In this document: positions 5,880 to 10,987 of the stretch, piece by piece
How the letters are laid out: every line of letters begins with the position of its first letter
Position numbering within the stretch: the first letter of the stretch is position 1
NCBI RefSeq assembly: GCF_006345805.1
Contig: NW_021827185.1
Coordinates: 1 to 10,987 of the forward strand
Origin: Octopus sinensis
Taxonomy: Eukaryota
Length of the DNA stretch: 10,987 nt
Direction: 5' to 3'
Position numbers and translations under genes: made by a program
The notes under the pieces: generated by a model
Database searches by the model: none
What the model was told of the DNA's origin: nothing
Seen by the model: the letters and a program-made list of their open reading frames with translations, nothing else

Positions 5880-6040
5880 TAATCCAAACATGAAAACACA
5901 AAGAGAAAACACGACAACGCGAGGACGTGGAACAAATATAGTACTATTGGACGCTCAGGAAGGAAGGGAAGAAGGAGGGTTTATGTTTCGAGCGGAGCTC
6001 TTCGTCAGAAACATAGGAAAAGGAAAGATCAAGAGAAGGG
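5876..6040 (-). mobile_element. Putative Penelope-like element terminal fragment (pLTR)
   Basis: Contains a hammerhead-like motif, TTCCTGAGCG and a T-rich tail ending at (TA)n; same layout as the units at 6375-6683 and 10625-10987. Confidence 0.7.
5979..6012 (-). ncRNA. Minimal type I hammerhead ribozyme-like motif 1 (stem III and cleavage site degenerate)
   Basis: Minus strand GTTT-CTGACGA-A-GAGC-TCC-GCTC-GAAAC-AT-AAAC: CUGANGA and GAAA cores, stem II GAGC/GCUC, stem I GUUU/AAAC. Confidence 0.7.
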
Positions 6041-6044
6041 ATAT

Positions 6045-6372
6045 ACACACACCAACTAATACATACTAATACGTACTAATACATACTAGTACATACTAAT
6101 ACTTACACCAACCCTATACATACACACGTCCAGACCCCGCATACGCACTTATACTCTCTCACACACACACACACATACCTATACATACCAATACGTACTA
6201 ATACATACTAATACATACTAATACATACACCAACCCCATACATACGCATGTCCAGACCAATCTTACGCACTAATACTCCTCATACACACACCACACACAC
6301 ACACACACCCTTATACATACTAATACATACACCCACCCTATACATACACACATCCAACCCTCCCACGCACTT
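6045..6372. repeat. About 130-bp unit repeated ~2.5 times, with internal 10-bp TACTAATACA repeats and CA tracts
   Basis: Variants of CCCTATACATACACACGTCCAGACC...TACGCAC near 6112, 6235 and 6336. Confidence 0.8.
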
Positions 6373-6374
6373 TT

Positions 6375-6683
6375 AGCTGGTCCCTCAACCCATTTATCAC
6401 CCTATTTCTCCCCTTATTTCGCTCTCGCATCTCATGTTTGATCTTTGACCTCTGGCCGAAATCAGATCGCCATGTTGATTCGTTAGCTACTGCACGCATT
6501 TTTTTTTTCTCCTCCTTCTGTCTGTGTTTTTTTCTCTCTCTGTGTATCTTTCTGTTGAAGAGCGTAGGCTCGAAACGTTAAAGACTTGTTTTATTTATAT
6601 TTCCTGAGCGCCATACTAATACAATTGTTCGTTTGTTTTCCACCTGCCTTCGTCTTTTGTTTATTTTCATAAAGCTTCCCGTT
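6375..6683 (+). mobile_element. Putative Penelope-like element terminal fragment (pLTR)
   Basis: Pyrimidine tract, hammerhead-like motif, TTCCTGAGCG (6601-6610) and a T-rich tail ending at (TA)n. The 5' boundary is uncertain. Confidence 0.7.
6547..6584 (+). ncRNA. Minimal type I hammerhead ribozyme-like motif 2 (A6U core variant)
   Basis: TCTTT-CTGTTGA-A-GAGC-GTAG-GCTC-GAAAC-GTT-AAAGA: 5-bp stem I, 4-bp stem II, palindromic AACGTT in place of stem III, predicted GUU cleavage after 6579. Confidence 0.75.
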
Positions 6684-6730
6684 ATATATATATATATATA
6701 CATACACACATATATAAATATATTTATTAT
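6683..6730. repeat. (TA)n-rich microsatellite
   Basis: Directly visible. Confidence 0.9.
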
Positions 6731-6899
6731 AATAAGGGCTAGGCAAAAGAATTTGCTTCACCACACACCGAACTTTAGAAATAGCCGCCAAAGAATCTAG
6801 TTATTTCTTTACTGTAAGAAAACACTCCCAGACATATATACTCAAACAACAATCACGTAGGCAGAGAAAGAAATAACGAATTCACCCAGAATTTGATTA

Positions 6900-6984
6900 A
6901 CTGGGACGCGTTTCGAAATTAGATAGATATGAAAAATGCAAGAAACACATTTCCATTCTAATCACTTTTCTCTTCAAGCACAGT
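6900..6984 (-). ncRNA. Hammerhead ribozyme-like motif 3 with long stem II
   Basis: Minus strand ACTGTG-CTTGAAGA-[GAA..ATTAGA-ATGGAAATG..CATTTTTCAT..TCTAAT-TTC]-GAAAC-GC-GTC-CCAGT. Palindromic ACGCGT at stem III, GUC triplet, imperfect stem I. Confidence 0.6.
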
Positions 6985-7222
6985 ATTTCAATATATTCTA
7001 ATTGGTAGCACTGAAAGAACTGAACATACCTATCTAACTCCGTAACATCAGACAAATTATATCCATGACCAGTATCGCCGAATTCAAAACATGCGAATGA
7101 GGTCCCGCATTCTCCCCCGTCCACCCACGTATGTTGTCAAGCAAAAATTCTACAGAAAAAAACTGTAGTTTATTATCAGGGAGAGAATTGTATTGTCAAT
7201 AATAATAATAAAGGTCATAACT

Positions 7223-8521: not shown

Positions 8522-8578
8522 CATACATACATACATACATGCATGCATGCATACATACATACATACATACTACATACA

Positions 8579-8612
<34 letters not shown>

Positions 8613-8665
8613 CATGCATACATATGTATGTATGTATATATATGTTTATATATGTATGTATACAC
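8492..8665. repeat. (TACA)n/(TATG)n microsatellite
   Basis: Directly visible. Confidence 0.95.
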
Positions 8666-8907
8666 GCGCTTGAAAACGCGTTGCCTAACTGTTAGTGTGT
8701 TAGAAATCGAATCGCAAGTTCGTTGCTCCAACCCAGTCAATTGAAAATGAGAACAGCAAGGGTTGAGGGAGAGGGGTATTGTTGAACCTTGCGACAGACT
8801 GGATGAATTATTGCATTGTCGGCTACTTGTGCACAATGAAAACCAAGGTAAGCTCTGACCTAATAAATCTACATATACATACATTTATGAATATATACAC
8901 ATACACG

Positions 8908-9410
8908 TGGTACATTTGGTACCTAAGGGACAACGGTATAAACAATCGCGAGCTGGCAGAATCGTTAGCACGTCGGGCGAAATGCTTAGCGGTATTTCGT
9001 CTGCCGTTACGTTGTGAGTTCAAATTCCGCCGAGGTCAACTTTGCCTTTCATCCTTTCGGGGTCGATAAATTAAGTACCAGTTATGCACTGGGGTCGATG
9101 TAATCGACTTAATACCTATGTCTGTCCATGTTTGTCCCCTCTATGTTTAGCCTCTTGTGGGTAATAAAAAAATAGATATAAACAATCGCACCATCATATG
9201 GCGCATTTTAGTTGAAGCAACTGCATATATTGGACCGGTAACAAGATGTAGTCTGAGCGTAATCCAAGCACTGCACATCCTGTCTGCAACTAACACCCCA
9301 AACTCAAGAGAGTTGACCCTTGACTCCTTGCTCACATGCGGAAAAATTCAGTTTAAAATATTTAAACATACTCTTCCCCGCAGACGAACTCCATCTACAT
9401 ATAGAACAGT
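8908..9410 (+). pseudogene. C-terminal fragment of a second type of Penelope-like GIY-YIG endonuclease, split by a SINE
   Basis: After removing the 240-bp insert the frame reads WYIWYLRDNGINNRTIIWRILVEATAYIGPVTRCSLSVIQALHILSATNTPNSRELT, then (+1 frameshift) PCSHAEKFSLKY. This fits the YIWxLK..I.W.IL..A.Y...CxLC..E...I..LNxRxE...CRH..KF pattern as I recall it. Confidence 0.7.
8948..9176 (+). mobile_element. tRNA-derived SINE (tail type A) with target-site duplication
   Basis: A box TGGCAGAATCG (8954), B box GTTCAAATTCC (9018), core CTTTGCCTTTCATCCTTTCGGGGTCGATAAATTAAGTACCAG; flanked by TATAAACAATCGC at 8937-8949 and 9177-9189. Confidence 0.95.
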
Positions 9411-9710
9411 ACTAATCTCGAAGATGAATTTCTAATCAAAGGCATCCCGTCTTCATCCTTACCATAATAACCACTGCCCACTCCAACATTATCCTAACCC
9501 CCACTGTCATTATAACCCCCAGCCCAATTTTTCAATGTCTTTATTATTATCACCTCTATCACCTCTTTCGGAACTGCCGTACGTAATAGCACATATAAAC
9601 TTTACATAACTAAGGACGTTATCCCTTCAGCGGTATAACTATATCAGCCATCAATCACTATTTATACTATATCTGTTAGTCATCTCTATCGTTACTTGCG
9701 TTCAGTACTT

Positions 9711-9892
9711 TTATTACCCACACCTTTTCGAAGGCGGAGGTATTGTTCTCAGTCGTGTTTGTTACTTTGTTCGTGGACAAGATATCTCAAGAACCGCTGA
9801 ATGGATTCGGATGAAACTTTGGCCTCGTGACTGGCACGGACTGATTAGATTTTGGGATCGATCTGGTACCGGACAAGGATTCTTGATTATTT
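9711..9892 (+). mobile_element. Terminal fragment of a non-autonomous Helentron-associated (HINE/DINE-1-like) element
   Basis: Starts in a T run with TTATTACC, then the hairpin TACCCACACCTT-TTCG-AAGGCGGAGGTA, a GTTT-rich stretch, ATATCTCAAGAACCGCTGAATGGATTCGGATGAAACTT and ATTAGATTTTGGG. These motifs are familiar from this element class. Confidence 0.6.
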
Positions 9893-10624
9893 GTTATATC
9901 TACTTTACATGAAGTATTACAACCATACGTTCACTTTCAAGTCTTTCTCTGATTATCTCTCTTGTTATTATTGCTATCATCTGATATTGTATCCTCATAT
10001 AATCTCCCCATTTGATTTTTTACTTTTGATATTCCTCGCTTTCTTTTGCCCAATCTTAATTTACTTATTTGACTTGTATTTTATCTAAATTTCTTTTTTA
10101 GTCTTTAAATCCCTTCCGTTTTACTACATTTTTTTAATGTTTTCCCCGTTTTTTCTGTTTTTCTTTTATAATCATTATAATTTTTATGAACTCTTAAACA
10201 ATATCTGTACATTCTCATGTTCCCCGTTATCTTTTCATAATTTTTTTTCAGATTTTTCTAATCATTTTTCCCAATATATTTTTTCAACATTTTTTCATCT
10301 TTTTTCTTATAATGTTCCTTATAATTTTATTTATATTCCCACCATTAGTTGTCCACTCCCCCACACCATTTTGACTTCATTCTTATCTTATTCTATTTAT
10401 GACTATTTGTTAAGGCTTTGTATTAATGACCAATCCTCGAAAATGACCCCATTTATTATGTTTTCATATCCTTCAATAATTTTCAAAACTTTATTCATAC
10501 CCCTCTCAATTTTCACGTGTCCCCAAAATTTTCTTGTATTGTTATATATTTTGCCAATTATTCTCCTATTTAGGCCATTATTCTGCTGCTATCAAGCTTG
10601 GCTGTCATGCTATCGTATATATAT

Positions 10625-10987
10625 GGTGCAAGAATTAGAAAACAACATGAAGACGACGTAAAGAAAATTACAAAAGAACCAGAGTGTTTTAGATTTACGC
10701 TCAGGAAAATAGAATAGAAAGAAAAGTTTTTAACGTTTCGAGCATACGCTCTTCTACAGAAAGAAAAGACGAAGAAAGAAGAACAAGCGTGTCTCAATTA
10801 GAGAGTCACTGCATGCTGAAATGACCGGAAGAGGAAGGATTTGCTAGTGTTGTGAGTGACAAGGCGTACTTTTGGAAACCTGGCATATGTGTGTGTGAGT
10901 AAAAGCGTGTGTCTGTATAAAGATGATGTGTGCATGTATATCTTTCTGCTTATGCACGTGTATACGTGTGTATGTACGAGCGCGTGT
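10625..10987 (-). mobile_element. Putative Penelope-like element terminal fragment (pLTR), may extend beyond the window
   Basis: Hammerhead-like motif, TTCCTGAGCG (10698-10707, minus strand) and a T-rich tail ending at the short TA run 10616-10624. Confidence 0.65.
10727..10764 (-). ncRNA. Minimal type I hammerhead ribozyme-like motif 4 (A6U core variant)
   Basis: Minus strand TCTTT-CTGTAGA-A-GAGC-GTAT-GCTC-GAAAC-GTT-AAAAA; the same fold as 6547-6584 with one stem I mismatch. Confidence 0.72.

Follow-up and report, generated by a model that had tools for sequence, protein, structure and literature searches.

A Penelope-like retroelement clade of Octopus sinensis with U fixed at core position 6 of its minimal hammerhead motif

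Can a natural hammerhead motif be inherited with U in place of the A that textbooks hold invariant at core position 6? The question is raised by a stretch of 10,987 nucleotides of Octopus sinensis DNA (NCBI RefSeq assembly GCF_006345805.1, contig NW_021827185.1, positions 1 to 10,987, forward strand), hereafter the window. A sequence-only reading of the window had described three minimal hammerhead motifs in diverged retroelement termini, at 5979-6012 (−), 6547-6584 (+) and 10727-10764 (−), and had proposed that U6 in two of them is a heritable core variant and not random decay. We report here that the U6 motif belongs to the minimal type I hammerheads and lies in the terminal repeats of a Penelope-like element (PLE), that U6 is family-wide in a clade of these elements, and that an attenuated ribozyme has probably been retained.

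The motifs and their carrier element

All three motifs were found at these positions and read as they had been described. When both strands of the window were scanned with a generic descriptor (CTGNNGA, an optional extra base, stem II of at least 3 bp, GAAA), exactly these three were returned. Local shuffles (n = 300) gave a mean of 0.13 matches, or 0.013 with a stem II of at least 4 bp and GAAAC. An Rfam search of the window gave no hammerhead match down to E = 5. The motifs and the elements that carry them are as follows.

6547..6584, + strand: motif 2, an intact U6 minimal hammerhead with stem I CUUU/AAAG, stem II GAGC/GCUC and loop GUAG; C3 at 6552, U6 at 6555, the extra A (9b) at 6559, the palindromic ACGU at 6575-6578 and the predicted cut site between 6579 and 6580
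6043..6683, + strand: element of motif 2, a 5'-truncated 3' end (3' untranslated region and terminal repeat) belonging to the youngest subfamily of U6 PLEs, with a (TA)n end
10727..10764, − strand: motif 3, a U6 minimal hammerhead of an old subfamily, with U6-A7, loop GUAU and a stem I interrupted by a C.A mismatch; U6 is at 10756 and the predicted cut site lies between 10732 and 10731
10616..10830, − strand: element of motif 3, the 3' end of an old U6 PLE subfamily, with best relatives mostly 69-79% identical
5979..6012, − strand: motif 1, a decayed minimal hammerhead with a canonical core (A6 at 6005) from the UCC-loop sister family, its palindrome broken
5877..6041, − strand: element of motif 1, a 5'-truncated 3' end of the A6/UCC family with a (TA)n end, 83-90% identical to A6 copies

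The window thus carries three independent 5'-truncated PLE 3' ends, and motif 2 alone among the three motifs is intact. Motif 1 has A in place of G16.2 and has lost one base by comparison with the GAAACGTTAAACC of its family; its element falls in cluster 8 of the flank-based grouping described below. In the family of motif 3, U6 was found in 16 of 22 scored copies including that of the window (25 loci read). Beyond the decay of motif 1 and the mismatch in motif 3, three details of the sequence-only reading were revised. Its loopless stem III palindrome AACGUU is replaced by the 4-nt ACGU as the catalytic stem III, since the longer version would need an A14-U17 pair and 35 of the 60 intact copies analysed below have A17. 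The flanks, which had been called poorly alignable, can be aligned: in all three motifs TCCTGAGCG occurs some 20-25 nt beyond the cut site, and the tails are similar. The covariation noted in stem I is real, with GUUU/AAAC in one family and CUUU/AAAG in the other, but it amounts to one event only, between two families.

The assignment to retroelement termini was borne out by open reading frames (ORFs) of the GIY-YIG endonuclease and by full-length elements bearing a reverse transcriptase (RT) in the 2.72 Gb genome from which the repeat-rich window comes. Window positions 6043-6731 are 95% identical over 694 nt to a locus (L004) where a GIY-YIG ORF precedes the same sequence, and the U6 motif is located about 560-870 bp 3' of the ends of such ORFs. 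It is present in both terminal repeats of full-length RT and GIY-YIG elements of 4.1-4.5 kb, and two U6 motifs stand 4.1-4.5 kb apart around long frames in 5 of the 10 regions examined. One full-length element, L026, comprises RT, endonuclease, 3' untranslated region, U6 motif and (TA)n end. Frames of 841 and 975 amino acids match RVT_1 above the cut-off (E = 2.7e-8 and 7.8e-8); the GIY-YIG match is under the curated cut-off (E = 0.0013), and the motifs of this domain are visible in the frame of locus L133. A CX4CXXC linker (CSRPRCRTC) lies ahead of the GIY-YIG stretch in one frame. The RT followed by a C-terminal GIY-YIG domain, and the direct terminal repeats (pLTRs) each with a hammerhead, identify an endonuclease-bearing PLE. 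The CX2-5CXXC linker between RT and endonuclease, together with the (TA)n targets, agrees with the Neptune group, although this linker is shared with Nematis; it has been described for the elements of both groups (PMC8557442; this and all other papers cited here, except PMC7151607, are drawn on in part, and statements about them refer to those parts). The whole hammerhead is retained in 37 of 39 distinct 5' repeats, a conserved ORF starts several hundred bases downstream of the U6 motif, and the element 3' end lies about 100 nt beyond the predicted cut site. Upstream of an A6 copy with a UUU-type loop there is an endonuclease remnant with 40-52% identity.

Several arrangements of these elements were also observed. 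The A6 and U6 fragments of the window adjoin head to head at 6041/6043, and A6 copies also lie near full-length U6 elements at L133 and L134; this adjacency probably arose from shared (TA)n targets. Tandem units, each with a U6 hammerhead, occur at L126:5163-6692 (four units at about 510 bp spacing), L030:4865-5093 (two units, 228 bp) and L130:5994-6472 (two units, 478 bp). They resemble retrozyme arrays and could form dimers in cis. A single locus (L393-L395) has a 56-bp tandem repeat whose unit begins at the predicted cut site.

Position 6 across the genome

The genome-wide search that the sequence-only reading had called for, with the descriptor CTGNNGAAGAGC-N3-5-GCTCGAAAC, returned 24,325 exact matches, while the reversed control returned none. 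Among the first 100 matches listed, loop II was 4 nt long in all 74 U6 copies and 3 nt long in all 26 A6 copies. In the GUAG-loop family, U6 was counted in 14,893 copies and another letter in 562 (96% U6 of 15,455). The non-U6 letters were 67 C, 24 A and 9 G in 100 listed copies, as expected of decay from U. When copies were grouped by their downstream flank alone, the non-U6 copies were scattered inside U6 clusters with no cluster of their own, and the nearest neighbours of 28 non-U6 rows, in a sample enriched with 30 non-U6 loci, were U6 in 18 cases, C6 in 9 and A6 in 1. A C6-majority cluster of three copies that appeared in a finer clustering is an artefact of the 30 loci having been picked as non-U6. 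A looser A6 pattern gave 6,250 matches, chiefly from the UCC-loop sister family.

Seven flank-defined clusters have the 4-nt loop. U6 is the majority in every one of them, over N7/H17 states of U/U or U/A, A/A, G/U, C/A, C/C and U/A, and also in the GUAU family of motif 3. In a tree built from the flanks only, one well-supported branch divides the 4-nt-loop groups from the A6 groups. The tree has no outgroup, and a single change from A6 to U is the simplest reading, since A6 is found in the sister family and in all 56 published metazoan representatives of PLE minimal hammerheads, among which the sole core variant described is U3-A8 (PMC4209133).

To avoid conditioning on the core, a second sample was anchored on a downstream flank motif, taking 90 of the first 100 listed of its 17,835 matches. 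Twenty of these lacked an ungapped hammerhead motif (truncated or deleted), and at this stage position 6 was U in 66, A in 2 and G in 2 (n = 70). Removal of 10 more copies with a truncated or gapped 5' part left 60, and all 60 have U. The letters C3, U4, G5, G8 and A9 are each kept in 58-60 of the 60, with a C3-G8 pair possible, and G12, A13, A14 and A15.1-U16.1 in 59-60. The extra base 9b, G10.1-C11.1 and the palindromic 15.2/16.2 are likewise conserved. Only the two positions that a hammerhead leaves free are variable, N7 being U in 36, A in 11, C in 9 and G in 4, and H17 being A in 35, U in 24, C in 1 and G in none. Between subfamilies the 36-nt motif differs at N7 and H17 only, plus one loop base when the GUAU family is counted: N7 takes all four letters, and the majority letter at H17 is U, A or C (a C17 subfamily is present) and never G. 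Columns in which a minor letter reaches at least 10% number 0 of 29 among hammerhead-constrained positions, 2 of 7 among free ones (N7 and H17) and 21 of 56 in the flank. The Fisher p value for constrained versus flank columns is 4e-5, although columns cannot be treated as independent and the flank count may be raised by low sequence complexity.

These results uphold the proposal that U6 is heritable and not random decay. Sporadic U6 in families whose consensus has A6, which the sequence-only reading had set against its own claim, does not describe the data, since U6 is family-wide. The A at position 6 that marks the canonical minimal hammerhead is present in the family of motif 1 and absent from the U6 clade, and this clade is therefore a variant rather than a canonical form. 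The expectation that standard searches would miss it also holds, for CUGANGA descriptors such as that in PMC8557442 would skip U6 cores.

A search for U6 families with a different stem II gave 45 matches (control, 4), and the 30 loci read were mostly decayed or old copies of the same clade, or false matches in stem II of unrelated A6 motifs. Metagenome candidates (34 matches) were all dismissed, none having a stem I or II. Contigs under four other organism labels span the motif; their position-6 state is not readable, as the known N7/H17 differences were also missed there.

Predicted folds, cleavage and the reasons for retention

We propose, at a probability of roughly 0.6, that a PLE lineage fixed U at core position 6 and that an attenuated ribozyme has likely been retained, one whose cleavage after H17 would require a double hammerhead and would probably be helped by an element protein. 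In the modelled free monomer, U6 would pair with A15.1, alongside U4.G16.2 and G5-C15.2, so that the ACGU palindrome would be hidden and the ribozyme off. Once this fold was opened, for example by the ORF protein, two repeats of one tandem transcript might pair through ACGU/ACGU and cleave slowly. Most transcripts would then remain uncut, as needed for new insertions since the 3' end lies past the cut site. A stronger version of the proposal is that an entire retroelement clade, long-lived and active in recent times, operates with a CUGUNGA hammerhead in which U6 is a built-in off switch, pairing A15.1 and hiding the dimer palindrome, with cleavage switched on by the element protein or by a metal other than Mg2+. 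We offer this version tentatively, as a possibility that falls short of even odds.

The fold in question is a predicted rod in which U4-G5-U6(-U7) pair with (A14-)A15.1-C15.2-G16.2. It consists of stem I, the U4-G5-U6/A15.1-C15.2-G16.2 helix, a tandem G.A loop and stem II. The predicted probability of the G5-C15.2 pair is 0.98 for motif 2; it ranges from 0.13 to 0.98 over seven U6 copies and from 0.00 to 0.66 over six natural A6 copies. The rod is the predicted minimum-energy fold in six of the seven U6 copies, is strongest in the youngest and most abundant subfamily, which has U7 (P = 0.98), and is not favoured in the C7/C17 copy (P = 0.13).

What is known of related hammerheads is compatible with slow, assisted cleavage. 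A natural hammerhead with C at position 6 has low but real activity that is rescued by Mn2+ (PMC3088659, PMC7151607). PLE hammerheads cut weakly, as dimers (PMC4209133), and the hammerhead of an Anolis PLE cuts only with the PLE protein, uncut RNA being the main insertion substrate (PMC11167929).

Several observations weigh against retained catalysis. By nearest-neighbour energies, two rod monomers of motif 2 (−20.4 kcal/mol) are preferred to the double hammerhead (−12.9 kcal/mol). For each of the six A6 copies, too, the double hammerhead scored no lower than two monomers, and the energy model is therefore crude on this point. Covariation in stem II is weak, being confined to 10 genome copies with GGGC/GCCC that are not mutual nearest neighbours; both stems are changed in one copy, L292. 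Loop II and base 9b are near-invariant, which catalysis alone does not explain and which points to an additional constraint. In 0.3 mM Mg2+ the A6C change drops the cleavage rate from 0.3 to 3.6e-6 per min (PMC7151607), and in a pairwise scan CUGA-turn mutants were inactive apart from a C-G swap (PMC9901934). Finally, 5' ends did not cluster at the cut site among the 39 distinct 5' repeats. One of them starts near it (L026, 2 nt past the cut site), and the other exception begins about 25 nt later. Copies starting at the cut site were also sought genome-wide. There were 83 matches, and 13 for a control 7 nt upstream. Thirty of the 83 are (TA)n junctions, and another 29 reflect a single-base indel in an intact motif; where loci were read (30), the upstream motif was missing from 21. 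This count is confounded and is not taken as evidence, because a TA step is present at the cut site but not at the control position, and because in the flank-anchored sample the TA of loop II has TA junctions no less often.

Some of these observations would be expected if the hammerhead were dead and kept as a rod-shaped hairpin that an element protein binds, with a role in packaging or in positioning the internal initiation of reverse transcription, and were maintained by selection for that role. The fold predictions and the invariance of loop II and 9b suit this explanation, as do the missing cleavage footprint in the 5' repeats and the Anolis element, in which hammerhead mutants had no effect on insertion in vitro (PMC11167929). 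N7 and H17 are moreover unpaired or mismatched in the rod too, so their variability is accommodated. Regardless, C3 and U16.1, which are essential in a hammerhead and unpaired in the rod, share the internal loop with H17 and yet never vary between subfamilies, whereas N7 and H17, with four and three states, need at least three and at least two changes. By a simple calculation, if the four positions were equally free, all five changes would fall on N7 and H17 about 3% of the time. A G17 would pair with C3 and strengthen the rod but is never a subfamily state, and the rod is not favoured in the C7/C17 copy. Since C3 and U16.1 stay constant while N7 and H17 change, and since G17 does not occur as a subfamily state, we prefer a slow double hammerhead opened by protein to a dead rod, which we regard as unlikely though a serious competitor.

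An overlapping signal is much less probable. Here the upstream pyrimidine tract and the AG of the core would provide a 3' splice site or a promoter element, U6 would lengthen the tract, and the hammerhead would survive only in unspliced RNA. Such a tract precedes the motif in all families, subfamilies with A7 read ...CUUUCUGUAG, a good acceptor, and a D. virilis element has an intron end in helix I (PMC4209133). However, that AG is missing from the most abundant subfamily, which has U7, the A6 families have the same tract, and no spliced-looking junction was seen by eye in the 90 copies of the flank-anchored sample or in the 39 5' repeats. It is more improbable still that one master copy lost A6 and that the dead motif was then copied as a neutral passenger without selection. 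Copy number alone does reflect amplification and not function, and Naiad elements have spread without canonical hammerheads (PMC8557442). The motif has nevertheless stayed fixed while 21 of the 56 flank columns diverged between subfamilies, and relatives about 25-30% diverged still have it. The flank-anchored comparison largely refutes neutral carriage.

Known hammerheads, neighbouring features and significance

The octopus motif closely resembles the minimal hammerheads of Cervera and De la Peña 2014 (PMC4209133). Both have a type I layout in both terminal repeats, a 4-bp helix I, an extra base between 9 and 10.1, G10.1-C11.1, a loopless palindromic helix III and a U-rich upstream flank. The A6 sister family here has a near counterpart in the Acropora Neptune example (CUGACGAA GGGC UAAC GCUC, CGUC). 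The extra A after A9, G10.1-C11.1 and the loopless palindromic stem III are thus already published for PLEs, and U6, fixed clade-wide here where those motifs have A6, is the new part. The Bcep176 A6C hammerhead (Perreault 2011, PMC3088659; Naghdi 2020, PMC7151607) also has a natural pyrimidine at position 6, with reduced Mg2+ activity expected. It is, however, a single phage sequence with C6, whereas the present motif has U, is a minimal dimer-type motif, and occurs in about 15,000 exact copies over many subfamilies. In the Anolis Poseidon element PAc (Frangieh 2024, PMC11167929), as here, the hammerhead is about 100 nt inside the insertion 3' end, targets are AT-rich and no ends at the cut site are evident; unlike here, the start codon lies inside the PAc motif, while the octopus elements have their ORF several hundred bases downstream, a Neptune-like linker and a U6 core. 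The PLE dimer hammerheads of Lünse, Weinberg and Breaker 2017, as reviewed in PMC6765202, are alike in their diminished palindromic stem III and in cleavage as dimers. No natural U6 hammerhead was found in the literature searched, in part judged by title or abstract among the papers listed, a provisional result because the Lünse 2017 survey, the Arkhipova 2017 Terminon paper and supplements may list one. A term search of a recent octopus repeat annotation (PMC13282606) gave no mention of ribozymes.

The rest of the window contains the following features.

740-1050, 1060-1270 and 3245-3440, + strand, and 8945-9175, − strand: a SINE-like repeat, about 300 bp long, in several copies
2330-3230, + strand: broken 3' part of a non-LTR retrotransposon, presumably R4/Dong-like, with a zinc knuckle (zf-RVT below the cut-off) and a restriction-like endonuclease motif seen by eye
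3760-4290, + strand: degenerate tandem repeat with units like HDV/CPEB3-type ribozymes
4420-4970 and 7215-7800: degenerate tandem repeats with spacings of 24/38 bp and about 240-250 bp
9900-10620: AT-rich stretch with strong strand skew and a 190-codon stop-free frame on the + strand, outside the element of motif 3, whose matches end at about 10616

The repeat at 3760-4290 is possibly an array of HDV-like ribozyme units; Rfam CPEB3 matches it at 4087-4166 with 30.1 bits (cut-off 35) and more weakly at 3842-3910.

Why Penelope elements keep hammerheads is an open question, as these cut poorly in vitro and are dispensable in the one reconstituted insertion system. The O. sinensis genome provides a natural matched pair in its A6 and U6 sister lineages, together with subfamilies distinguished by N7 and H17 alone. 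If the U6 motif does not cut, selection can retain a hammerhead sequence for a non-catalytic job. If it does cut, a textbook invariant has been relaxed under natural selection, and CUGANGA searches undercount eukaryotic hammerheads. Should U6 indeed serve as an off switch, position 6 would lose its invariant status in a natural ribozyme under selection, and every CUGANGA search would have overlooked large families of eukaryotic hammerheads.

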